From: Candidatus Dormiibacterota bacterium
Lineage (GTDB): Bacteria; Chloroflexota; Dormibacteria; Aeolococcales; Aeolococcaceae
Direction of reading: 5' to 3'
NCBI GenBank assembly: GCA_963791435.1
Contig: CAWBSL010000001.1
Location: forward strand, 1,553,817-1,617,816
DNA: 64,000 bases
The translations under genes and the position numbers were made by a program. Positions within the stretch are counted from its first letter, which is position 1. The number at the start of each line of letters is the position of its first letter. The notes beneath the pieces are model-generated. The model searched no databases. It was given only the letters and a program-made list of their open reading frames with translations, and had not been told where the DNA came from. Shown piece by piece: positions 40,732 to 61,009 of this stretch.

Positions 40732-41826
40732 TTGATCACACGTGAGATCCAGGTGACCCCGGACCAGCGAGCGGCGCTCGATGCCGCGCGCCGAGAGTTC
40801 TCCGCCGACGTCATCTTTCTCAACTCAGCAACGATGGGACTGCCGCCGCGGCGCACCATCAAAGCGCTGCAGGACTCGATGACCGAGTGGGCCTCCGGAA
40901 GAGGGGACGGCCCCGCATACGACATCCCGGTCGCGACAGCGCGGGAGCTGTACGCCGGCCTCGTCGGCTGCGACCCTGGAATGGTCTCGGTCGGCAGCCA
41001 GGTGTCGGTCTTCGCGGGCCTCATTGCCGCATCGCTGCCGCCAGGGAGTGAGGTCCTCACTGCCACGGGGGATTTCACGAGCATCCTGTTTCCGTTCCAT
41101 GCCCAGGCGGCTCGTGGGATCACGGTGCGCGAGGCGCCGCTCGAGCACATCGCCGATGCCGTCACGTCGCAGACGACGCTTGTCTCGGTGTCCGCGGTGC
41201 AGTCCGCCGACGGACGCATCGCGGATCTCGATGCGTTGACGGCTGCGTGTGCGGCAAAGGGGACTCGGATCCTGCTCGATACCACGCAGGCGGTCGGCTG
41301 GCTCCCAATTGATGCACGCCGGTTCGCGTACACCGTGAGCGGCGGATACAAATGGCAGCTTTCACCCCGCGGCACCGCGTTTCTCACCATCCAGCGTGAG
41401 CTGCTCGACGAGCTGACGCCGAACAACGCGGGCTGGTATGCCGGTGCCGAACGCTGGAGCAGCATCTACGGCGCGCCGCTGCGCCTCGCTGCTGATGCGC
41501 GCCGCTTCGACGTCTCGCCCGCGTGGCTTCCCTGGGTTGGTGCGGTGCCGTCGCTCGAGCTTCTCACCGACGTCGGCCGCGACGCATTGCACGCGCACGC
41601 CGTCGGCCTCGCACACCGATTCTGTGCCGGCGTCGATCTGCCGTACCACGGTTCCGCGATCGTCTCGGCCGTTGCAGACGCCGAGGTCCCCGCGCTGATG
41701 CGATCGGCCGGCATCGTCGGGGTCACCAGAGCCGGGAGGCTCCGTCTGTCATTTCATGTCTCAACGAGCCAGGAGGACGTCGACCGCACGGTCGAGGTGC
41801 TCTCCGGTCACCTGCGCTCGTCGTAG
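40732..41826 (+). CDS. class V (PLP fold type I) aminotransferase
   Basis: ...VIFLNSATMG..., SGGYKWQLSPRGTAFL (PLP-lysine region). 364 aa. Alternative GTG start at 40753. Confidence 0.8.
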   Translation: MITREIQVTPDQRAALDAARREFSADVIFLNSATMGLPPRRTIKALQDSMTEWASGRGDGPAYDIPVATARELYAGLVGCDPGMVSVGSQVSVFAGLIAASLPPGSEVLTATGDFTSILFPFHAQAARGITVREAPLEHIADAVTSQTTLVSVSAVQSADGRIADLDALTAACAAKGTRILLDTTQAVGWLPIDARRFAYTVSGGYKWQLSPRGTAFLTIQRELLDELTPNNAGWYAGAERWSSIYGAPLRLAADARRFDVSPAWLPWVGAVPSLELLTDVGRDALHAHAVGLAHRFCAGVDLPYHGSAIVSAVADAEVPALMRSAGIVGVTRAGRLRLSFHVSTSQEDVDRTVEVLSGHLRSS

Positions 41827-41870
41827 CGACGCGCGGTGCCCAACTCGCATCCATCAGAGGAGAGGACGCC

Positions 41871-43209
41871 ATGACCGTTCAGGTCACACAGAGCCGCATG
41901 ACCAGCGAAGAGATCGCGCGGTTGTCGAAGGAGCACACGTTCTTCTCGTGGTCGGTGCAGGGTGCAGTCGATCCCATCGCCATCGATCACGCGGAAGGAG
42001 TCTGGCTGTACACGCCTGAAGGCAGGCGCATCCTCGACTTCAACAGCCAGCTCATGTCGGTGAACATCGGACACGGCGACCAGCGGGTCGTGCAGGCGAT
42101 CACCGAGCAGGCCACCAAGCTGCAGTTCGTGCAACCGGCATTCGTCACCGAGATTCGCGCGCGCCTCGGTGAGAAGTTGACGTCGCTCCTGCCCGGAGAC
42201 CTCGACAAGGTCTTCTTCACACTCGGCGGGGCGGAGGCCATCGAGAACGCGATCAAGATCGCGCGTCAGTACACCGGCCGATACAAGATCCTCGCCCGGT
42301 ACCGCGCCTATCACGGGGCCACGATGGGCGCAATGACGCTGACCGGCGATCCACGCCGCTGGGCGACGGAACCCGGACTCGTCGGCGTTGTCCGGTATCC
42401 CGATACGCATCGCTGGGGTGAGCACGAACCGAGACCCGTGGCAGAAAGCCTTCAGGGTCTCGAGGACGTGATCCGTTACGAGGGACCGCACACCATCGCG
42501 GCCATCTTCCTCGAGACCATCGTCGGCACCAACGGCATCCTGATTCCACCGGACGGCTACATCCAGGGCGTCCGCGAGCTCTGCGATCGGCACGGCATTC
42601 TGATGGTCGCGGACGAGGTGATGGCGGGTTTCGGGCGTACGGGGAAGTGGTTCGCGGTCGAGCACTGGAATACCGTCCCGGACCTGATGACCATGGCCAA
42701 GGGTCTGACGTCCTCGTACCTGCCACTCGGGGCGGTGGCGATGCGCCGTCACATCGCCGAGAAGTTCGAACTCGATGATGTACTACGGCGGCCTCACGTA
42801 CTCGAGCCATCCCGTGTCACTCGCCGCGTCGCTGGCCACGCTCAACGTCTACGAGGAGGATCACCTCATCGAGCGCTCGGCTGCGCTCGGGCCGGTGATG
42901 CGCGCCCACCACGAGCGCCTGGCTGCGAAGCACCCGAGCGTCGGCACGCATCGCAACCTGGGGTTGTTCGGCATCCTCGATCTCGTGCGTCAGCAGGATC
43001 CGTACACGCCGATGACGGCGTTCAACGCGTCGAGCGGGGAGATGGCCGCCATCGGCAGGTATCTGCGCGAGCACGGCGTGTACACGATGATCTCCAACAA
43101 CTCGATCCATACCAACCCGCCGCTCTGCATCAGCGAGGACGAGCTCGCGCACGGATTCGAGGTCATCGACGGCGCGCTTTCGATTGCCGACAAGGCCGTT
43201 CTGGGCTAG
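41871..43209 (+). pseudogene. class III aminotransferase (omega-aminotransferase family), interrupted by 1-nt insertion-type frameshift near 42771-42785
   Basis: GGAGAGGA RBS then ATG. ...GGAEAIENAIKIAR...DEVMAGFGRTGKWFA...AKGLTSSYLPLGAV...AEKFELD continues in the +1 frame as MYYGGLTYSSHPVSLAASLATLNVYEE.... The extra base lies in the gatgatg repeat. Confidence 0.8.
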
Positions 43210-43238
43210 CGTCTGATCCCCCACGTGGTCGACCAGCC

Positions 43239-45887
43239 GTGAGCGACGACGCCGAGCGCGCGCAACTCCGTGATGATCCGGCCGGCTGGCGGCGCTGGGG
43301 TCCGTACGTCAGCGAGCGTGCCTGGGGGACGGTGCGCGAGGACTACAGCGCCGACGGTGACGCGTGGGCTTATATCCCGCATGACCAGGCGCGGTCGCGC
43401 GCGTTCCGCTGGAGCGAGGAGGGGCTCGGTGCGATCTGTGACGAGCACCAGTTGCTCTGCCTCGCATTCGCGTTCTGGAATGGCGTGGATCCCATCCTCA
43501 AGGAGCGCATCTACGGACTGACCAATCCGCAGGGAAACCACGGCGAGGACGCAAAGGAATACTGGTGGTACGTCGATTCGACACCGACGCACTCGTGGAT
43601 GCGCTGGCGGTATCTGTATCCCCACCTGGCTTTTCCCTACGACGATCTCCTCGCCGAGAACCAGCGCCGCAGCCAGCAGGAGCCCGAGTACGAGCTTGCC
43701 GACACCGGCGTGCTCGACAACGGTTTCTGGGACATCACGGCGGACTACGCAAAGGAGACGCCGGAGGATCTCGTGATCGAGCTCCGAGCCCGAAATACCG
43801 GCAGCACGGGACAGACACTGCACGTGCTGCCGACGGTGTGGTTCCGCAACACCTGGGTGTGGGGCATCACCGACACGGTCCCCTCATTGCATGTTGAGAA
43901 CCAGCGAATCGTCTGCGACCACACGGTTGTCGGCCGCATGTTCCTCACCGGCGACGGCGACTACACGCCGCTGGTCTGCGACAACGAGTCGAACGCGGCG
44001 CGACTCTGGGGGGCGCCTCCCCGAACCGCATTTCCCAAAGATGGCATCAACGACCACGTCGTCAACGGCGCAAGCACCGTCAACCCGGCGCAGGTGGGGA
44101 CGAAAGCCGCGCTCCACTACATACTCGAGGTCGAAGCCGGATCGACCGCGACCATCAGACTCCGCTTCGGTCGCCGCGAGACCGATGCCGTGGACGGTGC
44201 GGCGGCGGCGCTGGCATTGCGCCGGAGCGAGGCGGATGCGTTCTACGCGAGCCTCATGCCGGATCGCCTCACGCCGGACGAGCGTCTGGTGACGCGGCAG
44301 GCGCTGGGCGGCATGCTCTGGGGGAAGCAGTTCTACCACTACAACGTGACCCGCTGGCTCGACGGCGATCCTGCCGAACCTCCGCCGCCCGCCTCGCGAC
44401 TCGCAGGACGGAACGCCGGCTGGCGGCACGTCGACACGGCCGACATCATGTCGATGCCGGACAAGTGGGAGTACCCGTGGTTTGCCGCCTGGGACCTCGG
44501 GTTTCAGTGCGTCGCGCTGGCGCATGTCGATCCCGAGTTCGCCAAGGATCAACTCATCCTGCTGTGCCGCGAGTGGTACATGCACGCCAACGGACAGCTG
44601 CCCGCCTACGAGTGGTCGTTCGACGACGTCAATCCACCCGTGCACGCATGGGCGGCGCTGCGAGTCTTCGAGATTGACGGAGCAAAGGACTACCAGTTCC
44701 TCGCGCGAGTCTTCCACAAGCTGCTCATCAACTTCACGTGGTGGGTCAACCGCGAGGATGCCGAGGGCAACAACATCTTCGAAGGCGGTTTCCTGGGGCT
44801 CGACAACATCGGGCCATTCGACCGCTCGATGCTGCTTCCCGCGGGCGGTCATCTCGAGCAGTCCGACGGCACGGCATGGATGGCCATGTATTCGCTCAAC
44901 CTGCTCGAGATGGCGCTGATCCTCGCCACCTTCGATCGCGCATACGAGGACGTGGCCACGAAGTTCTTCGAGCACTTCGCGGCCATCGCAACGGCGATCA
45001 ACGAGCAGGGACTCTGGGATGAGGACGCGGGTTTCTATTACGACAGCTGGCGATTCGCCGACGGCACGCGAATCCCGATCCAGGCCCGTTCGATCGTGGG
45101 ACTCATCCCGCTCTGCGCCGCAACAACACTCGGCAACGACACGCTGAGTCTGTTGCCCGACTTTGCCGCGCGCCTGCGTCTGTTCATCAAGCTCAAACCA
45201 AGATATGCGGCTGCTGTCTCGCTCGAGCTCGAGGAGCGGGAACGCGAGAGCCGTCTGCTCGCGATCGTCGACCCGGAACGGCTGCGCCGCATCCTCTCGT
45301 ACGCGCTCGACGCGTCGGAGTTCCTCAGTGACCACGGGCTGCGTGCGCTTTCGCGATATCACGCCGACCATCCTCTCGACATCGATCTCGGCGGCATGGT
45401 GGCGCGCCTCGACTACGAGCCGGCGGAGTCGACGTCACGCCTCTACGGCGGCAACTCCAACTGGCGTGGGCCCGTGTGGTTTCCGGGCAATCATCTGATC
45501 GTCGAGGCGCTGCGTGTATACCACCGGTTTCTCGGCGACACCTGGACGGTCGAGTACCCGCGCGGTTCGGGCCGGCAGCACCATCTCGGCGAGGTCGCGG
45601 ACGATATCGCCGCGCGGCTTGCATCGATCTTTCTCCGAGCCGCCGACGGCATTCGCCCGGTGGTCGCGGGCATCGACCTCTACGCACGCCCGGACCTTGC
45701 CGACGCGATCCCGTTCCACGAGTACTTTCACGCGGAGACCGGCAAGGGACTCGGCGCGTCGCATCAGACCGGATGGACCGGGCTCGTCGCCGATCTGCTC
45801 CTGCGCAGGACCGCTTCACGCGACCGATTTGACATCGCCTCGCTCCGCGGCCCCGACGGTGCCGGGCCTCGTGAGGACCTGCACTAG
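43239..45887 (+). CDS. GH63-family (MGH1-like) glycoside hydrolase, putative glucosylglycerate/mannosylglycerate-type glucosidase
   Basis: 882 aa. [30 protein letters not shown] and (alpha/alpha)6 barrel motifs typical of GH63 (processing alpha-glucosidase/YgjK/GgH family). The 1454-aa ORF from 41523 is a read-through artefact. Confidence 0.78.
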
Positions 45888-49362: not shown

Positions 49363-50584
49363 TCAGATGCCTCCAGCCTGGCGTCCGGGACTCAGTGTCC
49401 GCGATGGATCGAGCTGCAGCTTGACGGAGCGCATGAGTTCCAGCGCGACAGGGTCATCCACCACTCCGGCCGAGGGCGAATCGCCGCGTCTGATCACCAA
49501 GCGGCCGCCCACCGCGCGCACCGCTGCGCGAACGGCCCCAAGCGCTTCAGGCGCGAAGCACACCTCTCCGGTGCCGAGCAGGGGTCGGAATGCGATCGCC
49601 TCACATGTAGCAGACAGAGTCGACAGTAACTCGACGGCGCGCGGCGGCAGCACCGCAACGGCACACACCATCCCTCCGCCGTTCCACGGGGATCCGAGAA
49701 GCGACGCATACATCACGCCGGCCTCACCCTCTGCAAGGATCCGGCCTCCGACGTCGTGCACCACGCGCTCGGCCTGGACCGCGGCACCGGCCTCCGAGCT
49801 GTCGAACCGCACCAGTGCCACACCGTGTGGCCAGTGGATGTCGACGAGAGAGGGAGTCAACCTGCAGCCGACCCACGCGTGCGGCGAAGCCGCACAGCTC
49901 CGAGGTGGATCGCGACTCGAGGACGACCGTCCGTGAGGCATCGGGCACGGGATGCAGGCGGAAAGCCACCTCGGTGATGACCGCGAGCGTCCCGAGCGAT
50001 CCCACGAGCAACTTGGCGACGTCGAACCCCGCGACGTTCTTGACGACCTTGCCTCCGCTCCTGCCCACCGTGCCGTCGGAGAGCACGAAGCTCGCGCCGA
50101 TCACGAGGTCGCGCGCGGTACCGAAACGCGTGCGCAGCGGACCGCTCGCAGCGGTCGCGACGACGCCGCCGATGGTCGCAGCGCCTCCGTGGGGTGGATC
50201 GAGCATCAGACGCTGGCTGAATCCCGGGGCTGCGGCGAGGGTCTCCTGAAGAAGCGCGAGCGGCGTCCCCGCCCGCACCACGCAGACGAGGTCTGCGGGC
50301 TCGTGGTCGACGATGCCGGTGATGCGGGATGTCGAGAGCACGATCTCGCAGCGCTCAGGCGGCGAGCCCCACCCGAGCTTCGTGCCGCCACCACGCGCGA
50401 CGACCGCCAGGCCGCGGGCCGTCGCGGCCGACAGGACCGAGGCGACCTCAGCTTCGTCAGCGGGCGAAACGACAAGTCGCGGCATGACGCCGCCGACCGA
50501 GTCATCGGCGCCGGGCATTCGCACGTGCGCGGCGCCGACCAGCTCTGTGAACAGGCTCAATTCCTGCGACGTCGAGACCGTCAC
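49363..50584 (-). pseudogene. glcE: glycolate oxidase FAD-binding subunit, interrupted by 1-nt insertion-type frameshift near 49845-49870
   Basis: GTGA overlap with the glcD stop. FAD-binding PCMH N-terminal part ends ...ELCGFAARVGRLQV. The C-terminal part (...PSLVDIHWPHGVALVRF...LMRSVKLQLDPSRTL) is in the +1 frame. Confidence 0.75.
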
Positions 50585-52033
50585 AGCCGCTCCGCGAGTC
50601 CGGTCATCTCGATCGCGTGCGGCCGGTACATCCCGGGCACCTCGCCGCAGAGTTGCGGGGTGGGAAGCGCCTTGCCGGGGTTGCAGAGATCGCTTGCGTC
50701 GAACGCGTCGCGGACCCGCCCCATGACCGCAATCGAACCCGGGCTGAACATCTTCGGCATGTAGCAGGCCTTGTCGGATCCGACTCCGTGCTCGCCGGTG
50801 ATCGAGCCACCCGCGGCAATGCAGGACTCGAGGATGAGCCCCGCGAGCTCGAGCGCGCGAGCGGACGCGCCCGGCTCAGTGTCGTCGTACAGGACCAGCG
50901 GATGCAGGTTGCCGTCTCCTGCATGGAAGACGTTGGCGACGCGCAGCCCATAGCCGGCCGACAGGGTGCCGATCTCTTCGAGCACCTCGCGCAGACGAGT
51001 TCGCGGGATCACGCCGTCCTGCACGTAGTAGTTCGGGCTGATCCTTCCCATGGATGCGAACGCCGCCTTGCGTGCCTTCCAGATCAGCGCCCGCTCTGCC
51101 TCGCTCGCGGCCACCCGCGTCTCGGTCGATCCGCTCGCGGAACAGATGTCGAGCACCTGGCGAAGAAAGGCGCTCGAACTCGACTGCAGGCCCGTCGAGC
51201 TCGACGATCAGCGCGGCGCCGCAGTCCGGATATCCCGCGTGAACGATCTCCTCGCAGGCCTGGATCGCGAGACGGTCCATCATCTCGATGGCGGCCGGTG
51301 TGATGCCCGCAGCGATGATGCGTGACACTGCCTCGCCGGCGTCGCCCATTGTGGAGAATGCCGCCAGCACCGTCTCAGTCGACTCCGGAACGCGAACGAT
51401 GCGGAGCACAACCTCCGTCACGATGCCGAGCGTCCCTTCGCTGCCGATCACGACGCCCAGCAGGTCATAGCCGGGGGCGTCACGCACGGAGCCCCCGAGC
51501 TGCGCGATCTCGCCGCGCGCGGTGACGAAGGTCGCCGCCAGAACGTGGTGCGTTGTGAACCCGTACTTCAGGCAATGCGCGCCGCCCGAATTCTCGGCGA
51601 CGTTGCCCCCGATGGTGCACACCTGCTGCGACGATGGATCCGGTGCGTAGAAATACCCGAGTGGTCGCACCGCCTTGCTCACCTCGAGATTGGTGACACC
51701 GGGCTGCACGGTGACCTGCTGATTCTCGAGGTCGATGGCGAGGATGGCCCGCATCCGGCTCAGGCCGATCACAACGCCGTCTGCGACGGGGAGCGCACCA
51801 CCGGAAAGTCCTGTGCCGGCGCCGCGTGCCACGAAGGGCACGTTGCTGTCCGCACAGGCGCGGACGACCTCTGCCACCTGCTCTGTGGTGGTCGGGAGCA
51901 CAACCGCTGCGGGAGAGACGCGGCGGCCCGTGAGACCGTCGCACGCATACGTCTGCAATGCCGCGGGCTCGGTGATCATGCCGTCGTCGCCGACGGCGTC
52001 GCGCAGACGGTGCTGCAGCGCAACGTCAAGCAT
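50581..52033 (-). pseudogene. glcD: glycolate oxidase subunit (FAD-linked oxidase), interrupted by 1-nt insertion-type frameshift near 51150-51165
   Basis: N-terminal part (ARGAGTGLSGGALP... IVELDGPAVEFERLSS) joins C-terminal part (VLDICSASGSTETRVAASEAERALIWKARK...HAGDGNLHP) when one C is removed from tcgCcaggtg. The reconstructed linker matches the GlcD consensus. Confidence 0.8.
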
Positions 52034-53138
52034 GCGACGCCATCGCCGCCGCCGCGGCATCGATCGTGCGGGCAGCCTCCGCCTCGGTGACGGTCCCCAT
52101 GTGACCGATGCGGATGCCTCGCCCGGCCCACGGGCCGAGGCAACCCGCAATCACCACACCGCGATCGCTCATGCCGGCGCGCAGCGTCGCGTCGTCGACC
52201 CCTTCGGGAAGCGCGAGAACACTCAACGTCGGTGCGAGCAACGCGCTGTCGGTGAGGGGGGTAAATCCGAGCTCTGCCATCCCGTCGCGCACCATCCCTG
52301 CGATGCGACGGTGGCGCTCGTAGCGCGCGGGAAGTCCCTCCGCGAATATGCCGTCGAGCGACACCTCGAGCGCCCGCAGCAGCGACACGGCATGCGTCGA
52401 GAAGTACTTGCGCGGGTCGTCGACGGACGCGTCCCAGCGGCGGAGGTCGGCGTAGTACGCATGAATTTCGCCGAGCGACTCGCGGCGGCGGCGCGCGCGT
52501 TCGGAAACAGCAAGGAGTGCCAGACCCGGTGGCACGCTCAGTGCCTTCTGCGCACCCGTGAGCAGGACGTCAACGTCCCACGCATCCATCTTCTCGTCGA
52601 CACCACCGGTCGCGCAGACGCCATCGATGACGACCAGCGCATCCGGAGCCGCAGCGCGAATCGTCGCGGTGAGCGCGGCGCAATCCGCGAGCACGCCGCT
52701 GCTCGTGTCGACGTGGGTCATGCAGACCATTGCCGGCTGATCGCCGTCGAGTATCAGGGCTCGAAGCGCATTGGTGTCCGCGTGCTGACCCCAATCGACT
52801 CGCATCACATCGGCGCGCATTCCGAGCGCGCCGGCCACCTCGGTGAACCGGTCGCCGAAGTATCCGTGGCTGACGACCACGACCCGATCGCCCGGTGACG
52901 CGTGGTTGACCAGTGCCGCCTCCATCGCCAGCGTCCCTGCTCCCGCGAAGCAGTGGACCCGCGCATGTGCCGATCCCATGAGCTCGCGGATACCGGCCTG
53001 GATGCGCAGCATCGTGGCGGCGTTCTCGGGACCCGTATGGCTGCGAACGGGCTCGGCGAGCGCAGCGAGGACTTCCGGTGCCACCGGCGTCGGTCCGGGG
53101 ATCATGAGCAGCGGCGACGTTGTCATGAGCGCTCCCAT
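52026..53138 (-). CDS. alanine--glyoxylate / serine--pyruvate aminotransferase (class V)
   Basis: LLMIPGPTPV... and TGAQKALSVPPGLA (PLP lysine). Confidence 0.85.
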   Translation of the reverse strand: MGALMTTSPLLMIPGPTPVAPEVLAALAEPVRSHTGPENAATMLRIQAGIRELMGSAHARVHCFAGAGTLAMEAALVNHASPGDRVVVVSHGYFGDRFTEVAGALGMRADVMRVDWGQHADTNALRALILDGDQPAMVCMTHVDTSSGVLADCAALTATIRAAAPDALVVIDGVCATGGVDEKMDAWDVDVLLTGAQKALSVPPGLALLAVSERARRRRESLGEIHAYYADLRRWDASVDDPRKYFSTHAVSLLRALEVSLDGIFAEGLPARYERHRRIAGMVRDGMAELGFTPLTDSALLAPTLSVLALPEGVDDATLRAGMSDRGVVIAGCLGPWAGRGIRIGHMGTVTEAEAARTIDAAAAAMASHA

Positions 53139-53208
53139 GCTGCCACACGCGCCGCCGCCCCCGTGATCGGTAGCTTCGCCCGCCGATCGGGTGAGGGCGG
53201 CTCAGCCG

Positions 53209-53395
53209 CTAGATGGAGTCGCGGCGAAAGGCGGCGATCACGATGGGCGCGTCCTCGCGCACCGCGACGTCGGTGCCGTCGACGAAGGAAATCCGAGTGG
53301 ATCCCACGGATTCCTGGCGAACCTGGGTCACGGCCTCCACGTTGATGTAGGTCGACGCCTCATCGGCGGCCAGGTGGAGCACGACCCATTTCGCC
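53209..53395 (-). CDS. small hypothetical protein (62 aa, MAKWVVLHLAADEAS...)
   Basis: Only the C-terminal 62 aa of the 229-aa track ORF have coding character. It lies upstream of the AGT-glcDEF operon. Confidence 0.35.
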
Positions 53396-53731
53396 ATGCC
53401 CCGCAGTCTATCAACCGGCCGGAACGCGTCCAGACACGCGGATGACACGAATGGGCCCTTGCGAGGACGGGTGATGCGGGACGGCCGGGTGACGCTTGTC
53501 ACAGTCCTGAACGCGCGTCGATCTGCGCTCCCACTAAGTACCCTGTCGAACAGACGCCCCCGCGCGGCTCCGGCAGATTTGGGCCTCGTGAGCAACACGG
53601 AAGCTGACACCGCGGTGGGCGGGGACAACTGGTAACACCAGATCGGGTGACCGCGTCGCACCGACCGAAGGAGACTTCGACCGTGACCACCCGTAGCGCA
53701 CGGTCGCAGATTCACCGGATCTAGCGCGCTC

Positions 53732-55708
53732 GTGTCATCTCGCCGGCTGTTCATCATCGTGACGGCGTCGATCGCCGTCCTCGTCAGCGTCTTCGTGAGT
53801 GCGTCGCTGCTCGGCTTCGGTGAGAACGTGTTGCTGTGGGTGTCGCTCGCGCTTGTCGGCCTGACGCTCACACCAATGTACCTGGCGCTGTATCTCAACC
53901 TCGGGCTCGGCAGGGCGCTGGCACATCAGGCGTCGCACGATTCGCTGACCGGATTGCCGAACCGAACGCTGCTGCGGCGGCGCCTGGAGCGCGAGCTTGC
54001 AGCATTCGCGACCGCGGAACAGAGCATGACATTGCTGATGCTTGACCTGGATGGTTTCAAGGAGGTCAACGACACCTTCGGTCATAGTGCCGGTGACCAG
54101 GTGCTGGTCCAGGTTGCGCAGCGGATCGTTGCCAGCGTTCGGGATGGCGATGCGGTTGCCCGTCTTGGGGGCGATGAGTTTGCCGTCCTCCTGGCGGACG
54201 GGCCCGGGGAAGACGCCGCCATCCTTGCACGACGTGTGCTCGCCGCACTGGAGCTGCCCCTTGCGTTGCAGACGACCACGGTAAGCGTCGCCGCGAGCGT
54301 CGGCATCGCCTCAGCAGGGCGCGGCGCGACGGCGGATGAGCTGCTGCGCAACGCGGACCTCGCGATGTACGCGGCAAAGTCCACGGGCGGCAACGGTTTC
54401 GCACTCTTCAAACCGTCCATGCACACGGCGGTGGCGGAGCGTGTGCGCGTGGAGACCGGACTGCGCACGGCGTGGCTCACCGGCGATCTGATCGTGCACT
54501 ATCAGCCGATCGTCGACCTCGAGAATGGTCGACTGATGTCGGTCGAGGCGCTCGCACGGTGGAAGCATCCGGACGGCGACATCATCACTCCGGACGTCTT
54601 CATCCCGATCGCGGAGCGCACCGGTCTGATCATCCCGATCGGCGCGCGGATCCTCAATGAAGCGTGCCAGCAGCTCGCGGCCTGGCAGGGTGAGTACGGC
54701 CCCGCCGCCGACATCACGATGAGCGTCAACGTGTCGCCACGACAGCTCTACTCCGGCGACCTCGAGGCAATCGTCGAGGAGGCGATTCGCAGCGCAGCGA
54801 TACAGCCCAGCAGCCTGATCCTCGAGGTGACCGAGACGTCGGTCATGGACGACATGGACAGCGCGATCCGGATTCTCGGCCGCCTCAAGGCGCTCGGCGT
54901 TGCGCTCGCCATCGACGACTTCGGAGTTGGCGCATCGTCGCTGGCCCGGCTGCGCCGTCTTCCGGTTGCGGTGGTGAAGATCGACAAGTCGCTGGTCGAC
55001 CACGTTCCTGATGGGCACGTGGCGAGCGCGCTCCTCGACGCCGTTGTCGGCATCGTCCGTGCACTGCAGCTACGTACGATCATCGAAGGGGTGGAGCGCG
55101 CCGATCAGGCCGAGCACTTGCGCGTCGCGGGCTACGATCTCGCGCAAGGGTTCTACTATGCACGGCCAATGGAGGCCGAGGGCATCGCGCGTGCACTAGC
55201 TGCCGCCCGGGCAGAAGACGCCGGGAGGGCGGTGTTCCCGGTCGATCTCGATCATCAAGCTGCGCCGCCGCACAAGCGGCCCGGACGCGCTGTGGTCGTG
55301 GACGACGACCAGTTCGTGGGGGCGACCGCCTGCCGGATCCTTGAGCGGTACGGCATGCGCACTGTGCTCGTGCCGACCCTCCGCGAAGCGATGGCGGAGC
55401 TGTCCCACGAGACCGATGTGATGGTTGTCGATATCGGCCTTCCCGACGGCGATGGATGGGACCTCATCACCCACGTGCGCAACGGCACCGTGCACGCGCA
55501 CATGCCGATGGTGGTGATGACGGGTTTGCTCGACAGCGCGGACGTCCTCAACCGCGCCTATGAGCTGAAGTGCGAATACCTGGGCAAGCCATTCGCTCCC
55601 GAGGCACTGATCGCGAAGATCGAATCGGCCAGGCGCATGGTCGCGGTCGCCGTGCCACCGGTCATCGACTCCGAGCTCGACACCCCCGTCGCCGCAGCCA
55701 ACGCCTGA
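53732..55708 (+). CDS. membrane-anchored diguanylate cyclase/phosphodiesterase (GGDEF-EAL) with C-terminal response-regulator receiver (REC) domain
   Basis: Two N-terminal TM helices. GGDEF with intact RxxD I-site (RDGDAVARLGGDEF). EAL domain with EAL, DDFGVG, KID and EGVE motifs. C-terminal REC (VVVDDD...VVDIGLPDGDG...VMTG...KPF). Confidence 0.88.
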   Translation: MSSRRLFIIVTASIAVLVSVFVSASLLGFGENVLLWVSLALVGLTLTPMYLALYLNLGLGRALAHQASHDSLTGLPNRTLLRRRLERELAAFATAEQSMTLLMLDLDGFKEVNDTFGHSAGDQVLVQVAQRIVASVRDGDAVARLGGDEFAVLLADGPGEDAAILARRVLAALELPLALQTTTVSVAASVGIASAGRGATADELLRNADLAMYAAKSTGGNGFALFKPSMHTAVAERVRVETGLRTAWLTGDLIVHYQPIVDLENGRLMSVEALARWKHPDGDIITPDVFIPIAERTGLIIPIGARILNEACQQLAAWQGEYGPAADITMSVNVSPRQLYSGDLEAIVEEAIRSAAIQPSSLILEVTETSVMDDMDSAIRILGRLKALGVALAIDDFGVGASSLARLRRLPVAVVKIDKSLVDHVPDGHVASALLDAVVGIVRALQLRTIIEGVERADQAEHLRVAGYDLAQGFYYARPMEAEGIARALAAARAEDAGRAVFPVDLDHQAAPPHKRPGRAVVVDDDQFVGATACRILERYGMRTVLVPTLREAMAELSHETDVMVVDIGLPDGDGWDLITHVRNGTVHAHMPMVVMTGLLDSADVLNRAYELKCEYLGKPFAPEALIAKIESARRMVAVAVPPVIDSELDTPVAAANA

Positions 55709-55748: not shown

Positions 55749-56783
55749 ATGCGCACCGTGTCCCGTCAACTGCGCTTCGGATACAAGGTGTCGGCGGAGC
55801 AGTTCGGCCCCTCCGCACTGCTCGATTTCACCGTGGCGGCAGAGCAATGCGGGTTCGACACCGCGGCCATCAGCGACCACTTTCAGCCCTGGCGGCACAC
55901 CGGCGGTCACGCGCCCTTCTCGCTTGCATGGCTGGGCGCGGCTGCTCAGGCAACCACGCGTATCGCGCTCGGCACAAGCGTGCTCACCCCGACATTCCGC
56001 TATCACCCCGCGGTGGTCGCCCAGGCGATGGGAACGCTCGGGAGCATGTTCCCCGGCCGGTTCTGGCTCGGGGTGGGGACCGGTGAGTCGATGAATGAGG
56101 CGCCGCTCGGCATCGAGTGGCCGGATACCAAGGAGCGGTTCGCTCGCCTCAAGGAGGCGGTCACGCTCATCCAGACGCTCATGACAACCGATCGCGTCAC
56201 CTTCGACGGCACGTATTACCGGACGCGCAACGCCACCATCTACGACCGTCCCGCGCAGCCGATCCCCATCTACATCGCGGCGGCGGGCGCATCAGCTGCG
56301 CGGCTCGCCGGCAGGGTCGCCGACGGGCTGATCTGCACCAGCGGCAAGGGTATGGAGCTCTACGCGGACACGCTTCTCCCGGCGGTCGCGGAGGGCGCTC
56401 GCGCGGCAGGACGCGAACCCGACGCGGTGGAACTGACCATCGAGATGAAGGTGTCCTTCGACAGGGATCTGGACAGGGCTCGAGAGGACACGCGCCACTG
56501 GTCGGCGCTCGCACTGTCGCCCGAGGAGAAGACCGGCGTCGAGGACGCCGTCGAGATGGAACGGCTCGCCGACGCGCTCCCAACAGACCGGGCGGCGAGC
56601 CGCTGGATCGTCTCCTCAGACCCTGACGAGCACGTGGACAGCATCCGCCCGTACCTCGATCTCGGGTTCACCCACCTCATCTTCCACGCGCCCGGCCCCG
56701 ATCAGCGCCGCTTCCTGGACCTGTACTCGCGCGAGGTCCTGCCACGTCTGCGCGCCATCGGCCGACGAGTCAGCGCCGCCTGA
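55749..56783 (+). CDS. fgd: F420-dependent glucose-6-phosphate dehydrogenase (LLM luciferase-like family)
   Basis: Colinear with mycobacterial FGD1 (GYK.SAEQF.P..L....V.AE..G.D.A.ISDHFQPWRH.GGHAPFSL.W...TPTFRYHPAV.AQA...WIVSSDPDE...HLIFHAPG.DQRRFL.L). Confidence 0.85.
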   Translation: MRTVSRQLRFGYKVSAEQFGPSALLDFTVAAEQCGFDTAAISDHFQPWRHTGGHAPFSLAWLGAAAQATTRIALGTSVLTPTFRYHPAVVAQAMGTLGSMFPGRFWLGVGTGESMNEAPLGIEWPDTKERFARLKEAVTLIQTLMTTDRVTFDGTYYRTRNATIYDRPAQPIPIYIAAAGASAARLAGRVADGLICTSGKGMELYADTLLPAVAEGARAAGREPDAVELTIEMKVSFDRDLDRAREDTRHWSALALSPEEKTGVEDAVEMERLADALPTDRAASRWIVSSDPDEHVDSIRPYLDLGFTHLIFHAPGPDQRRFLDLYSREVLPRLRAIGRRVSAA

Positions 56784-56789
56784 CCCGTC

Positions 56790-57200
56790 TTATCCCTGGG
56801 CTGTGGGGCCGCTCCGGTCGACGCTGATGCGCAGCAGAACACGGCGGTCTCGCACCATCGCCGCGCGGTAGTCGTTCCAGTCCGGATGCTCGCCGCTGAC
56901 CCGCCGGTAGTAGTCGACCAGCGGTTCCATCGCCTCGGGGAGGCTCACGATCTCGACGCTGCCCTCCAGGCTGTGCCACTCACCGAAGAACTGCTGGCTG
57001 AAGACGCAGAGCGCCGCGCGCGGCGTGCGCCGGAGATTGAGCGTCTTCATCGCCCCCTCGCGGGTGCTGATCACCACGCGATCTTCCGCATCGACGGTTG
57101 CGCTGACCGGCGAGAGTTGCGCCTGGCCATCGCGTCGATAGGTTGCGAGCACCGCGCGCGGGTTCGCGCGGACGAAGTCGAGCACGAGTTCATGAGCCAT
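56790..57200 (-). CDS. PPOX-class F420-dependent oxidoreductase (pyridoxamine 5'-phosphate oxidase-like split barrel)
   Basis: 136 aa. ...ANPRAVLATYRRDGQAQLSPV....VVIST... pattern. Confidence 0.75.
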   Translation of the reverse strand: MAHELVLDFVRANPRAVLATYRRDGQAQLSPVSATVDAEDRVVISTREGAMKTLNLRRTPRAALCVFSQQFFGEWHSLEGSVEIVSLPEAMEPLVDYYRRVSGEHPDWNDYRAAMVRDRRVLLRISVDRSGPTAQG

Positions 57201-58119
57201 CGAGCGACTCTAGGCTGTGGAGCAGCGAGCGGGCGAAACGCTGCTCTCCACCGGAGCCCTCCATCACCGTGTCGTCGACCAGCGTGTGCATCCCAAGCGA
57301 ACGGATCTGCCCGATCAGCCCGAGGTCCGCGCGGTCGATGACGATGGTTGCCGCGACGCCGGCGTAGTGGCGAGCCACGCCGAGCGCGGTGGCCTCCTCG
57401 CCCATCTGCTGGAGCATCGACACGGTCGGACCTTTCAGGGAGCGCCCGCCCACCACGGGGGATACGACGGTAACCCGTTCGCGATCGAGCTCATCGCCGA
57501 GGACGGCGAGGATCGGGTCGACGCTCAGGAGCGGATTCGACGGCCCGATGACCACGGCGTCCGCGTTTCGCACTGCGGTGACCGCCTCGGGCGAGGGGGC
57601 GGCCGACTCGATGCCGGCAAGGCGGATGCTTCGCACCACCGGCGCGCACCGCTCGCCGACGAACCACTCCTGCATGCTCAATTCCCCGGCATCGGTCCGG
57701 ATGTGGGTGCGGACGGGGTCGTCGCTCATCGGGATCACGCGCGCCTGAATGCCGAAGCTGCGCGCGAGATGCGCCACCGCCTCACTGAGCCGAAGGCCGT
57801 TGCGGAGGAGCATCGCGCGGAGCAGGTGAACGCCGATATCGCGGTCGCCGAGCTGGAACCAGGTCTGCTCACCGAGGCTCCCGAGCATCGCCTGCGCGTG
57901 AAAGGTGTCGTCACGAACGCCGAACCCGGTCAGCTCGTTGAACACACCGGCGAGCCGGTAGAGGATCGCGTCGACGTCCGGGCTCACGAGCAGACCCCAG
58001 AACTCGTCGTCATCGGCGGTGTTGGCGATGATCGCGAGGTCCTCCGGCGGCAGCTCGGCCGCAAGCCCGCTTGCCAGCCTGGCACCCCCGGTCCCTCCCG
58101 ACAGCAACGCGACTTTCAC
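57190..58119 (-). CDS. cofD: 2-phospho-L-lactate transferase (F420 biosynthesis)
   Basis: MKVALLSGGTGGARLASGL N-terminus and CofD/UPF0052 core. 309 aa. Confidence 0.9.
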   Translation of the reverse strand: MKVALLSGGTGGARLASGLAAELPPEDLAIIANTADDDEFWGLLVSPDVDAILYRLAGVFNELTGFGVRDDTFHAQAMLGSLGEQTWFQLGDRDIGVHLLRAMLLRNGLRLSEAVAHLARSFGIQARVIPMSDDPVRTHIRTDAGELSMQEWFVGERCAPVVRSIRLAGIESAAPSPEAVTAVRNADAVVIGPSNPLLSVDPILAVLGDELDRERVTVVSPVVGGRSLKGPTVSMLQQMGEEATALGVARHYAGVAATIVIDRADLGLIGQIRSLGMHTLVDDTVMEGSGGEQRFARSLLHSLESLDGS

Positions 58120-58853
58120 CGGAAGAGATCCAGCTCCGAGGGCCGCACCAGCTCCTGTCCGGATCCGGGCACGCCTTCCAGGTCGCCAAGTCCCTGGACG
58201 ACCACCACCGGGACGCGCCGCGTTTTGCCCATCACCAGCTCCGCGGCCGCCGCGAGCTCGTCCGCGATCGCCACCACCGTTGCCTGCAACGGCATCCCGA
58301 AGTCATCCGGCTGTCCGCGGTAGTCGAGCATCGCGGGAATCCCCGCCACGCCGAGCGCGACATTGACGAGTCCCATCCGCCAGGCGCGGCCGAACGTGTC
58401 GCTGACGATCACACCGACGCGGACCCCGGAGAGCGCCTCGACCCGGTCGCGTAGCACTCGCGCGCTGGCGTCACAGTCCACCGGGAGCAGGCAGACGTCG
58501 TCCGTGCCGTCCATGTTGGACCGATCGACGCCTGCATTCGCGCAGACGAATCCCTGGTGCGTCTCGACGATGAGGACGCGGTCGGCACGGACGATACGGA
58601 CCGTCTCGTCGAGCACCACCTGGACCATTCGTGCGTCGGCATCGAGGCCCACCGCCAGCGTCCGTGCCTGCTCGGACGGCGTCACCTCCGAGAGGCGCCG
58701 AATCCTCCCCTCGGCCTTGGAGACGACCTTCTGGGCGATCACGACGGCGTCGCCGTCGTGCAGCGTTCCGGAGTGCTCGACGATCAGCGCGGCCAGGTCG
58801 TCACCCGGGTGGATCTCCGGCAGACCCTCGACGCCGCGAAGCTCGAGGTTCAC
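58116..58853 (-). CDS. cofE: coenzyme F420-0:L-glutamate ligase, single-domain form
   Basis: ...GDDLAALI...DGDAVVIAQKVVSKAEGR...CANAGVD.SN... 245 aa, so it lacks the C-terminal nitroreductase-like domain of actinobacterial FbiB. ATGA overlap with the cofD start. Confidence 0.88.
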   Translation of the reverse strand: MNLELRGVEGLPEIHPGDDLAALIVEHSGTLHDGDAVVIAQKVVSKAEGRIRRLSEVTPSEQARTLAVGLDADARMVQVVLDETVRIVRADRVLIVETHQGFVCANAGVDRSNMDGTDDVCLLPVDCDASARVLRDRVEALSGVRVGVIVSDTFGRAWRMGLVNVALGVAGIPAMLDYRGQPDDFGMPLQATVVAIADELAAAAELVMGKTRRVPVVVVQGLGDLEGVPGSGQELVRPSELDLFR

Positions 58854-59455
58854 CCGGTCGGCTCGAGCCGGCGCCAGGCGGTGAGGTCGGCCGGCTCGTC
58901 GAGATCGAGAGCGAGACTCGGATCTTCATGGACCACGAACCGCCGGCCGCGGATTCGGGCCTCCTCGGCGAATTTCGGCAGGGATGCCGCTCCGAAGTGG
59001 AGTCCGAAGTGGTCCGGCGGTCGGAGGTACAGCGCGTTGGTGCCCTGGCGGCCGTCTGCGGGTGCAGCGACCACAAGGCTCCCAGGCTCCTCGGCGACGG
59101 CAAGGAGCCGGCGCAACGCTGCCTCGTCCACGAGTGGGAGGTCGGAGCTGAGGAGCAGCACCGCCGATGCGCCGCGCTGCGACGCCTCCTCGAGGCCGCG
59201 CATCGCGGCGGGATTCTGTCCGCTCGGGGAAGCCTCGACGACCAGTGCGGCGCCGCGGGTCCGGGCCAGTTCCGCAGCCTCGATCGATCCGCATACGGCG
59301 AGGGTCGGTGCAAGCCCGAGGGCCGCGTCGAGCGCCCGCGCGGCGGTCATCTCGGCGAGCCTTCGTCGCGCCTGTGGCTCCAGCACCGACGCGAGCCTCG
59401 TTTTCGCGGTGGTGAAGTCCTTGATCAGCACCACGATCCAGAAGGTGGGCGCCAT
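58850..59455 (-). CDS. cofC: 2-phospho-L-lactate (or PEP/3PG) guanylyltransferase
   Basis: WIVVLIKDFTTAKTRL is the hallmark of the CofC/FbiD N-terminus. MobA-like NTP transferase fold. ATGA overlap with cofE. Confidence 0.85.
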   Translation of the reverse strand: MAPTFWIVVLIKDFTTAKTRLASVLEPQARRRLAEMTAARALDAALGLAPTLAVCGSIEAAELARTRGAALVVEASPSGQNPAAMRGLEEASQRGASAVLLLSSDLPLVDEAALRRLLAVAEEPGSLVVAAPADGRQGTNALYLRPPDHFGLHFGAASLPKFAEEARIRGRRFVVHEDPSLALDLDEPADLTAWRRLEPTG

Positions 59456-59462
59456 CGACTGC

Positions 59463-60482
59463 CTAGGATCCGACTTCGGCGGGCACCGGCACATCGGCGG
59501 CCTCGTGCGGCGTCTCGACGACATCGCGCCGCTTCAGCAGGTTCAGCGTCGTGACCACGGCGATCAGGAGCAAGGCACCGACGATCTCGATCCCGTACAG
59601 GGGAAGGCCGAGGCCGACCGGAGCGGGGAGCGAGAACACCAGGAACAGCGTGCACGGGTACCCAAGCTCGGCGATCGATGCGAGCGATGCCGGCGTGCTC
59701 GCCAGCGCTCGGTAGTACAGAAGCATCGCGAGCAGGCCCGGGATGAGCGCGATCCCGATGAAGCTCGGAATCTGGTGCACCGAGAAGGTTCCGAGGTGGC
59801 CGCCTCCGACGTTGGTCAGCATGAGAATGAGCAACACCGGGAGTGCGAGCGTGAAACGCATCGCTGCCGTTGTCACGAACGAGACGTTCGAAAGGCTGTA
59901 GCGGCCGAACACCGTGCCCGACGCCCAGAGAATCACGGCGCCGAGAATCAGGATGGCCGCGAGCAGTTGATCGTGCTCCACCGCGGAGAACGGGGCGAAC
60001 GGGTTCTGCGGAAAGACGATGAGATACACGCCGACGATGGCGACTGCAGCGAGCGGCCAGAAGTACGGCTTGCGGCGCTCCTTCAGGAAGATGCGCGCCA
60101 TTGCGATGCCGAACACCGGCTGCAGCATGTACAGCAGGTACACCTCGTTCTCCACATTGAAGTCGGGGGCCGCATGCGCCGGGAAGGCATAGCTCAGCGC
60201 CTGCGTGAAGAGCACGGTGGCGAACGCCTGCGCGCCCAGCGCGATGATGCCCATGGCGATCCACTGACGGAGCGGCAGGTGATGGAGCTCACGGCGAATG
60301 CGACCCGCCAGTGGCAGAAAGCACAGCGCGATGAGCAGCGACTCGACGAAGACGATCTGGCTCGCAGTGAGCTGCTTGGTCAGCTCGGGTCGGAAATACG
60401 GGTCGGTCGCCCACATCGCGGCGGCGACGGCGACAGCCAGTGGTCCCATGCGGCCGATCAGACCGCCCGCTCTCGATGCCAC
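59463..60482 (-). CDS. DMT-superfamily (EamA-like) transporter, 10 TM
   Basis: Two EamA repeats. Directly upstream of, and co-directional with, cofC. Confidence 0.8.
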   Translation of the reverse strand: MASRAGGLIGRMGPLAVAVAAAMWATDPYFRPELTKQLTASQIVFVESLLIALCFLPLAGRIRRELHHLPLRQWIAMGIIALGAQAFATVLFTQALSYAFPAHAAPDFNVENEVYLLYMLQPVFGIAMARIFLKERRKPYFWPLAAVAIVGVYLIVFPQNPFAPFSAVEHDQLLAAILILGAVILWASGTVFGRYSLSNVSFVTTAAMRFTLALPVLLILMLTNVGGGHLGTFSVHQIPSFIGIALIPGLLAMLLYYRALASTPASLASIAELGYPCTLFLVFSLPAPVGLGLPLYGIEIVGALLLIAVVTTLNLLKRRDVVETPHEAADVPVPAEVGS

Positions 60483-60604
60483 GCTTACGGGACCCTGGCC
60501 TCGCGGGGGCGAGAGGACGGCCGGCCTGGGAAGTGCACCGGTAAATTACACTCGAAAGCACGCCCCCCGGCGTCGGGATACCAGCCACTTGCGGAGATGC
60601 GCTC

Positions 60605-61009
60605 ATGCTGTTCGGTCAAGACCACGTGGATCGATACGTCGCCACCAACGGTGACGAGGGGTATTCGTGGAACAAGGGCACCGAGATTCTGATCCTCACC
60701 ACCACAGGACGGAAGACCGGTCAGGCACGCAGCAATGCGCTCATCTTCGGCCGTCACGGTGACGACCTCCTTGTCGTCGGCTCGAAAGGCGGAGCGCCGA
60801 AACCGCCCGCGTGGTATGTGAATCTCACTGCCAACCCGGAGGTGCAGGTCCAGGTGAAGGGAGACCGCTTCGCGGCTCACGCTCGCACGGCAACTGCGGA
60901 AGAGAAGCCCGAGCTCTGGAAGATCATGACGGCATCGTGGCCGGACTACGACCAGTATCAGCAGCGCACCGAGCGCGAGATCCCCGTGGTCATCCTGACT
61001 CGCGACTGA
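60605..61009 (+). CDS. deazaflavin (F420H2)-dependent nitroreductase family protein (Ddn-like, DUF385)
   Basis: ...ILILTTTGRKTGQARSN.LIF...DDLLVVGSKGGAPKPPAWYVNL.ANPEVQVQV. Confidence 0.8.
   Translation: MLFGQDHVDRYVATNGDEGYSWNKGTEILILTTTGRKTGQARSNALIFGRHGDDLLVVGSKGGAPKPPAWYVNLTANPEVQVQVKGDRFAAHARTATAEEKPELWKIMTASWPDYDQYQQRTEREIPVVILTRD

Follow-up and report, generated by a model that had tools for sequence, protein, structure and literature searches.

A gene for a membrane-anchored GGDEF-EAL-REC protein

The 64-kb stretch of DNA analysed here (hereafter the window; contig CAWBSL010000001.1 of assembly GCA_963791435.1) carries a gene for a protein of 658 amino acids in which a hairpin of two transmembrane (TM) helices is followed by a GGDEF domain, an EAL domain, a linker and, last in order, a receiver (REC) domain. 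It is a candidate enzyme for the turnover of the bacterial signal molecule c-di-GMP, a cyclic dimer of guanosine monophosphate. The gene and the parts of its product are listed below, with the evidence for each in brackets.

53732-55708, forward strand: coding sequence, 658 amino acids, GTG start; TM hairpin, GGDEF, EAL, flexible linker and receiver (open reading frame [ORF] call, Pfam)
53747-53815, forward strand: TM helix 1, residues 6-28, equivalent to helix 1 of the ancestral ten-helix domain described below (alignment, hydropathy, AlphaFold2)
53828-53902, forward strand: TM helix 2, residues 33-57, equivalent to ancestral helix 10 and unbroken into the GGDEF domain (alignment, AlphaFold2)
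53930-54394, forward strand: GGDEF domain, residues 67-221, with the I-site R137xxD140 and GGDEF at 146-150 (Pfam, conservation)
54461-55168, forward strand: EAL domain, residues 244-479, metal- and substrate-binding residues complete (Pfam, alignment with MorA 4RNH, conservation)
55202-55285, forward strand: linker, residues 491-518, predicted to be flexible (predicted local distance difference test [pLDDT]; variable in alignment)
55286-55645, forward strand: receiver, residues 519-638, with the D567 codon at 55430-55432 (Pfam, alignment with PhoB and KdpE, AlphaFold2)

In Pfam, residues 67-221 scored 158.4 bits for GGDEF (PF00990; cut-off 23.8, E 1.7e-46), residues 244-479 scored 230.3 bits for EAL (PF00563; cut-off 31.3, E 2.7e-68) and residues 521-631 scored 51.6 bits for Response_reg (PF00072; gathering score 30.2, E 1.2e-13), values that exclude chance by far. 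Hydropathy marked two hydrophobic segments N-terminal to the GGDEF domain, and an AlphaFold2 model that drew on 98 relatives (mean pLDDT 85.8) has an N-terminal helical hairpin (helices 2-27 and 31-73) whose second helix continues straight into that domain. In the same model the receiver adopts a (beta-alpha)5 fold over residues 519-638 with pLDDT above 90, the confidence of the linker drops to 58-62 at residues 500-520 and below 50 at 507-515, and the C-terminal tail is disordered. The ORF, the Pfam matches, hydropathy and the model therefore agree on the TM-GGDEF-EAL-REC architecture with two N-terminal TM helices that a first-pass annotation, made from the letters of the sequence, had put forward; the three Pfam families named there as a check were all matched, and the motifs are intact, with one departure in EAL loop 6.

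The functional residues of each domain can be read directly. In the GGDEF domain, the I-site R137-D-G-D140 stands five residues ahead of G146-G-D-E-F150, and the metal- and GTP-binding residues D105, D107, N113 and D114 are all present. The catalytic set of the EAL domain (E272-A-L, R276, N333, E365/E368, D395/D396, K416, E452/E455 and Q472) aligns residue by residue with MorA; the sole motif departure is loop 6, which reads DDFGVGASS and in which, across a family set of 98 members, position 399 is V in 92 and I in six, position 401 is A in 89, and D, F, both G and both S are retained. The receiver aligns over its full length with those of PhoB and KdpE and contains D524/D525, D567, T597, Y616 and K619-P620; in PhoB, the residues aligned with D524/D525, D567, T597, Y616 and K619 are E9/D10, D53, T83, Y102 and K105.

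Among the same 98 members, the catalytic residues of both enzymatic domains, the I-site and the acceptor set of the receiver are each retained in 97-98 (R137 in all and D140 in 97; D525, T597, Y616 and K619 invariant and D567 in 97), and all three domains are under purifying selection. Retention of the acceptor set at this level makes a decorative or pseudo-receiver hard to square with the data. The earlier claims of an intact I-site, of complete EAL catalytic residues and of a C-terminal receiver (residues 519-638 of 658) with every phospho-acceptor residue are thus borne out, with loop 6 as the reservation to the second.

In NCBIfam, named phosphodiesterases and cyclases matched below cut-off only, headed by DibA, PdeR-like PRK10060 and DosP, which places the protein outside every curated equivalog. 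Its homologues come nearly all from metagenome-assembled genomes (MAGs) of Candidatus Dormibacterota and from soil or peat metagenomes, with GGDEF, EAL and REC in nearly every one; a scan of a genome collection gave at least two Dormibacterota loci together with generic GGDEF-EAL genes among the matches listed. By length, the 98 members comprise 59 long forms (890 residues or more), 19 proteins of 650-670 residues and 11 of 610-625.

The domain order, which the first-pass annotation had called unusual, is uncommon and real but not unique. We searched 1.84 billion cluster representatives with the EAL-REC junction (residues 400-658) and inspected the best 150, about 40 of which gave one contiguous match that ran from EAL into REC and was 25-41% identical to the query. 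Re-annotation of these matches with domain hidden Markov models made from this family resolved at least 17 X-GGDEF-EAL-REC proteins with the receiver last, about nine of the order REC-...-GGDEF-EAL-REC and about 12 that are REC-EAL-REC or EAL-REC. Examples bearing names, from MAGs of Acidimicrobiales (HUP86523.1, MHB8329725.1) and from Aeromicrobium sp. (WP_290512557.1), are annotated merely as 'EAL domain-containing protein'. At least 40 divergent clusters thus have a receiver behind EAL, an arrangement that is uncommon but no one-off: it recurs in many uncultured lineages and is unstudied. In the Protein Data Bank (PDB), no structure spans the three domains and no entry aligned over more than about 440 of the 658 columns, the best matches (MorA, PA0575, RbdA and DosP) ending where EAL ends.

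Loss of a ten-helix membrane domain

The closest relatives of the window protein are 84-88% identical to it and have 917-933 residues, against its 658. Such long forms (P0002, P0003, P0005 and P0020 among them), found in Candidatus Dormibacterota and usually of about 918 residues, begin with a ten-helix membrane domain: hydropathy marks 8-10 hydrophobic segments in the N-terminal region, and structure prediction returned a confident ten-helix model (pLDDT 82.9; predicted template modelling score 0.77). Apart from one block of some 260 residues that it lacks, the window protein is colinear with the long forms. Helix 1 of the long form is matched by its N-terminal 'MSSRRLFI...ASLLGFG', the segment 'ENVLLWVSLALVGLTLTPMYLALYLNLGLGRALAHQ' matches the last helix and stalk, and its TM helix 2 is near-identical to '..DVLLWVLLALVGLTLTRMYLALYMNLGLG' of the long forms; of the ten helices, only 1 and 10 are kept. 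The junction is as follows.

53819-53824, forward strand: deletion junction between G30 and E31 (nucleotides 53821/53822), where about 780 bp, or 260 codons, encoding helices 2-9 are missing (blastn)

Against the long-form loci L002 and L003, blastn alignments break at window positions 53820/53822 and skip positions 8135-8915 of L002 (about 780 bp). An imperfect direct repeat, GGCGACGT and GAGGACGT, lies at the two breakpoints in the long form, and it is this repeat that points to a microhomology-mediated in-frame deletion. Because the number of helices stays even, the catalytic part would still face the cytoplasm. The lost domain itself had no match in Pfam, and a word-indexed homologue search with it gave four fragments only.

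That long and short forms are orthologues follows from their shared position. In all relatives examined, the locus runs from FAD/FeS oxidase genes of glycolate-oxidase type through a class-V aminotransferase (Aminotran_5) and an opposite-strand ORF of 62 amino acids to the GGDEF-EAL-REC gene, and onward to an F420-type luciferase-like oxidoreductase (Bac_luciferase), PNPOx, CofD, CofE, CofC and EamA; eight loci (L001-L006, L085 and L095) share this gene order, with 70-89% identity across GGDEF-EAL-REC. Misassembly does not explain the short allele. A Logan short-read contig (L085, from SRR28042155) encodes the identical 658-residue protein in the same context, and a long-read contig from the European Nucleotide Archive (L001) is colinear with the window, junction included, at 98.6% identity. 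We regard it as near certain that the two-TM protein of the window is a recent in-frame deletion derivative of a ten-helix protein of about 918 residues.

Nor does the window stand alone in this respect. Besides the arrangement found here (type A, helices 1 and 10), there are proteins that keep helices 1 and 2 with the junction ..RSR/GFGKVLAHQ (type B1; P0031 and P0038) or with another junction (type B2; P0033 and P0055, whose nearest relative is the long form P0022 at 85%, not B1), a protein with helix 1 and a hybrid of helices 2 and 10 (type D; P0049), and one from a distant sub-clade with helices 9 and 10 (type E; P0105). In type C, the forms of about 620 residues represented at L095, a single helix is left and the start codon is that of a short ORF lying upstream of the gene in other relatives. 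Lineages with domain losses separate from that of the window are represented by loci L004, L006 and L095 and by proteins P0031, P0033, P0049, P0053 and P0105. The window protein, too, is closest to a long form, with 89% identity in the region that both have; to other short forms its identity is 79%. Since the junctions differ and the nearest relatives of types A and B2 are long forms, the ten-helix domain was lost independently on several occasions. That two-TM forms persisted and diversified argues that these proteins are functional.

The upstream spacer, the leader and the neighbouring genes

The gene is separated from the 62-residue ORF by a divergent spacer in which three kinds of feature were found.

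53209-53397, reverse strand: ORF of 62 amino acids, divergent from the GGDEF-EAL-REC gene and, in relatives, always paired with it (L002-L006, L085, L095)
53398-53731, no strand assigned: divergent intergenic spacer, 334 bp, between the gene and the 62-residue ORF (alignment of orthologous spacers)
53488-53503, no strand assigned: palindrome GGTGACGCTTGTCACA (GTGAC-N4-GTCAC), candidate regulator-binding site (nearly invariant alignment block)
53668-53724, forward strand: Shine-Dalgarno sequence AAGGAG at 53668-53673 and an upstream ORF (uORF) of 13 codons, from GTG at 53683 to TAG at 53722-53724 (orthologous leaders)

The region upstream of the gene had been described as unusually long, at 336 bp. 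This did not hold: a spacer of 334 bp is normal for the locus, relatives having 283-330 bp at the same position. Its identity to ten orthologous spacers is 68-85%, whereas third codon positions in the neighbouring coding sequence agree at only 53-76%, and on this comparison the spacer is under purifying selection, with conserved blocks at 53433-53451, 53488-53503, 53538-53556 and 53668-53724. The second of these is the palindrome, the sole match to GTGACNNNNGTCAC in the window (chance expectation 0.14), which we infer to be a candidate site for binding of a regulator.

The last block holds the uORF (MTTRSARSQIHRI), whose GTG follows a perfect Shine-Dalgarno AAGGAG by 9 nucleotides and whose stop lies 7 nucleotides ahead of the main GTG; the latter lacks a separate ribosome-binding site. 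In 10 of 11 orthologous leaders the uORF has the same start, stop and length, and its peptide varies (about 10 non-synonymous and 5 synonymous variants, counted from alignments). In L002 a 5-nucleotide deletion has fused the uORF in frame to the gene, and in L095, with its forms of about 620 residues, the Shine-Dalgarno sequence and GTG of the uORF now serve as the start of the gene itself; both cases argue that the site really initiates translation. These arrangements point to a probable translational coupling of the uORF with the GGDEF-EAL-REC gene. Between uORF stop and main start, at 53724-53725, the window shows a 2-nucleotide difference from L085.

The data give no support to a structured leader RNA. 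Rfam gave no match at the gathering score across the window, and none for 53100-53900 with E allowed up to 5; RNAalifold on the 11 orthologous leaders returned a covariation term of +0.85, which is no support; and the fold of the window leader was no better than that of shuffled sequences (z -0.07). One plausible hairpin of 13 bp, which covers the ribosome-binding site and the start of the uORF, is 99% paired, but it shows no compensatory change and cannot be told apart from shuffles. A scan for sigma-70 promoters and terminators over 53150-53800 found nothing.

On the far side of the spacer, the 62-residue ORF (MAKWVVLHLAADEAST...) is represented in 80 clusters, every one of them from Dormibacterota or from unnamed metagenomes, with 73-98% identity, and is thus better conserved than its large neighbour. 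It has no relative in the PDB. An assignment as FlbD-like would be tentative, the Pfam hits to DUF6897 and FlbD all being sub-threshold (best E 0.0013; for the window copy about 16 bits, the cut-off being 24.7) and coming from members that are 73-98% identical among themselves.

The surrounding genes of the window are metabolic only, including glutamate synthase, phosphoketolase, phenylacetate catabolism and a branched-chain 2-oxoacid dehydrogenase complex, with glycolate-oxidase-like genes and F420 biosynthesis in addition. An F420 cluster lies directly downstream of the signalling gene at 55749-60700 (luciferase-like oxidoreductase, PNPOx, CofD, stand-alone CofE and CofC); in relatives it continues into EamA and an F420H2-dependent quinone reductase, and its synteny with the signalling gene is kept across the clade. 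On the upstream side, single extra bases relative to L085 at 49859 and 51177 cause frameshifts in the FAD-binding glycolate-oxidase-like genes at 49724-50584 and 50581-52150. As L085 is a short-read contig without those frameshifts, the extra bases are probably long-read indel errors and the genes no pseudogenes; the GGDEF-EAL-REC gene is untouched by them. Elsewhere, an ORF of 1454 amino acids (41523-45887, forward strand) joins a class-III aminotransferase (residues 151-416) to an MGH1-like glycoside hydrolase (984-1200), which in relatives is a separate protein of about 880 residues; this ORF may be either a true fusion or a further product of an indel error.

Pfam scans covering essentially all called or plausible ORFs of the window detected no PilZ domain or other c-di-GMP receptor, nor any PilZ domain in a cellulose-synthase-like family-2 glycosyltransferase. 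That protein, of 728 amino acids (11176-13362, reverse strand), has a cellulose-synthase-like region (PF03552, E 5e-8); lying 40 kb from the GGDEF-EAL-REC gene, it is conceivably a polysaccharide synthase under c-di-GMP control.

Proposed function and comparison with known systems

We consider it rather probable that the gene encodes a membrane-anchored enzyme of c-di-GMP turnover whose activity is gated by phosphorylation through an unlinked kinase. The parts of this account are not equally firm: the identity of the protein and its origin by deletion are near certain, and gating by phosphotransfer, which the first-pass annotation had proposed and which the conserved acceptor residues make reasonable, is about evenly balanced between true and false. 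In the mechanism that we propose, the two-helix hairpin, with an external loop of about four residues and hence no external sensor, would anchor the protein, and its second helix would continue as a stalk into the GGDEF domain. Dimers of GGDEF would make c-di-GMP under feedback at the I-site, and EAL would hydrolyse it. The canonical PhoB-like receiver, tethered by a flexible linker of about 30 residues, would be phosphorylated at D567 by an unlinked histidine kinase, an Hpt protein or a small phosphodonor, upon which movement of T597 and Y616 would alter its surface or its dimerisation and so shift the balance of synthesis and hydrolysis, with the adjacent EAL domain as the probable route. 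An action upon EAL is the simplest model, because the receiver is PhoB-like and adjoins EAL and because EAL activity depends on dimer geometry. With the membrane sensor deleted, the receiver would be the sole remaining input in the window lineage. Translation would probably proceed from the conserved ribosome-binding site and the short uORF.

Several observations weigh against this account. The Pfam scans found no HisKA, HATPase_c, Hpt or second receiver in the window, in agreement with the first-pass annotation on the lack of a kinase nearby, so that the enzyme has no evident partner there; kinase, Hpt and REC genes are likewise lacking in the 8-kb flanks of the relatives' loci. Loop 6 of EAL, DDFGVGASS, deviates at two positions from DFG(T/A)GYSS, the consensus typical of active EAL enzymes. 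The receiver sits on a flexible linker, and the AlphaFold2 model carries no information on its docking to EAL or GGDEF. The type-A deletion is confined to the window lineage. The enzymatic activities of all family members are predicted from their sequences, which, as both catalytic domains are intact, do not say whether the net output is that of a cyclase, of a phosphodiesterase or of a switchable enzyme. Finally, an architecture with the receiver after EAL is undescribed in the full-text literature searched, which also held nothing on c-di-GMP in Dormibacterota.

The alternative that comes closest would make the protein a pure phosphodiesterase in practice, with GGDEF reduced to an allosteric module binding GTP or c-di-GMP, as reported for some tandem GGDEF-EAL proteins, and with a receiver that tunes hydrolysis only. 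The leading sub-threshold similarities in NCBIfam (DibA, PdeR-like PRK10060 and DosP) are phosphodiesterases, and the receiver adjoins EAL, not GGDEF; yet in the 98 relatives the GGDEF motif and the I-site, like the residues that bind Mg2+ and GTP, vary hardly or not at all, whereas a GGDEF domain with a regulatory role only usually has a degenerate motif, and the closest structure, MorA, is named a tandem diguanylate cyclase-phosphodiesterase. We judge this reading unlikely, if the most serious of its kind. It is still less likely that the receiver is fed by no kinase at all and acts as a constitutive module for dimerisation or scaffolding, as a phosphate sink, or as a responder to nothing but small phosphodonors such as acetyl-phosphate. 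Such roles would suit the lack of kinase and Hpt genes in 64 kb and in the relatives' flanks, as well as the flexible tether; but D524/D525, D567, T597, Y616 and K619 are complete in 97-98 of 98 members, pseudo-receivers normally lose some acceptor residues, and orphan receivers with distant kinases are common.

The remaining alternatives concern the short allele itself. That it is a non-functional or decaying remnant, in which loss of helices 2-9 inactivated signalling, would accord with the restriction of its junction to the window lineage and with the state of two neighbouring genes that, compared with L085, are each frameshifted by a single base. We think this very improbable: the frame is intact and all functional residues are present, the deletion is in frame and preserves topology, an independent assembly gives the same protein, other two-TM forms have persisted and diversified into many clusters, and the neighbouring frameshifts are missing from the short-read contig and thus are probably long-read errors. 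An artefact of assembly or sequencing, such as a repeat collapsed in a long-read assembly, might be suggested by indel differences in the window that are typical of long-read assemblies, but is essentially refuted by the identical protein and context in L085 and by the colinearity of L001 across the junction.

A wider proposal is more tentative; we hold it to be rather doubtful. The family as a whole would be a dual-input c-di-GMP switch with a ten-helix N-terminal sensor and a phospho-receiver, the latter acting on EAL from the C-terminal side, and repeated in-frame, topology-preserving loss of the membrane input (at least four junctions and one single-TM form) would have given rise to natural 'receiver-only' alleles. 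That eight membrane helices were repeatedly lost in frame is an instance of modular evolution in a signalling protein, and the locus provides a compact test case, since its protein is left with the receiver as input and the membrane sensor is still present in close relatives. The module would also be among the first concrete regulatory ones for Candidatus Dormibacterota, a widespread soil phylum with no known cultured representative. If the C-terminal receiver were to work unlike N-terminal ones, for example by dimerising upon phosphorylation and so clamping the dimer of EAL, c-di-GMP enzymes would have a new mode of regulation; and if the leader, with its ribosome-binding site, 13-codon uORF and palindrome, is regulatory, it would add a further layer of control, and the whole would be the first signalling module described for Dormibacterota. 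These findings extend current understanding and overturn none of it.

Control of c-di-GMP enzymes by receivers is well documented, though only for receivers that precede the catalytic domains, whereas a receiver behind EAL occurs in dozens of uncultured lineages. In RocR (3SY8), PvrR, PleD (1W25) and WspR, an N-terminal receiver controls a single c-di-GMP domain via changes in oligomerisation; the window protein differs from them in both respects, its receiver being C-terminal and its catalytic domains two. Closer in content are the REC-GGDEF-EAL regulators, Lpl0329/Lpg0277 of Legionella and RavR of Xanthomonas, which share all three domain types with it and offer a precedent for the proposed gating. 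In such regulators, both catalytic domains can be active and phosphorylation of the receiver shifts the balance between cyclase and phosphodiesterase (10.1101/604611; see also PMC6707612); a summary in the former describes a lowering of cyclase activity by phosphotransfer in Lpl0329, and a switch from cyclase to phosphodiesterase brought about by its kinase in another regulator (10.1101/604611). Lpl0329/Lpg0277 and RavR, however, have an N-terminal receiver, are soluble and have an adjacent kinase gene, whereas the window protein has its receiver after EAL, is membrane-anchored and has no linked kinase. It therefore falls outside the classical REC-GGDEF-EAL type on two counts, its receiver coming last (519-638 of 658) and no kinase gene being adjacent.

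For residues 59-488, the best matches in sequence and fold are MorA (4RNH/4RNF), PA0575 (5M3C) and RbdA/PA0861 (5XGB) of Pseudomonas aeruginosa (E 6.6e-94, 39-41% identity; Foldseek E 9e-41). These are membrane or PAS-input proteins with intact catalytic motifs, and the closest of them, MorA, was named a tandem diguanylate cyclase-phosphodiesterase by its depositors; unlike the window protein, none has a receiver after EAL. That order is shared by uncharacterised proteins of other uncultured Actinomycetota and relatives, such as those from Aeromicrobium (WP_290512557.1) and Acidimicrobiales (HUP86523.1 and MHB8329725.1), which are 25-41% identical to the window protein over EAL-REC and differ from it in their N-terminal inputs (PAS domains, other TM regions or extra receivers). 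Nearest of all are the long forms of Dormibacterota, which have the locus, the GGDEF-EAL-REC core and the leader in common with the window gene.

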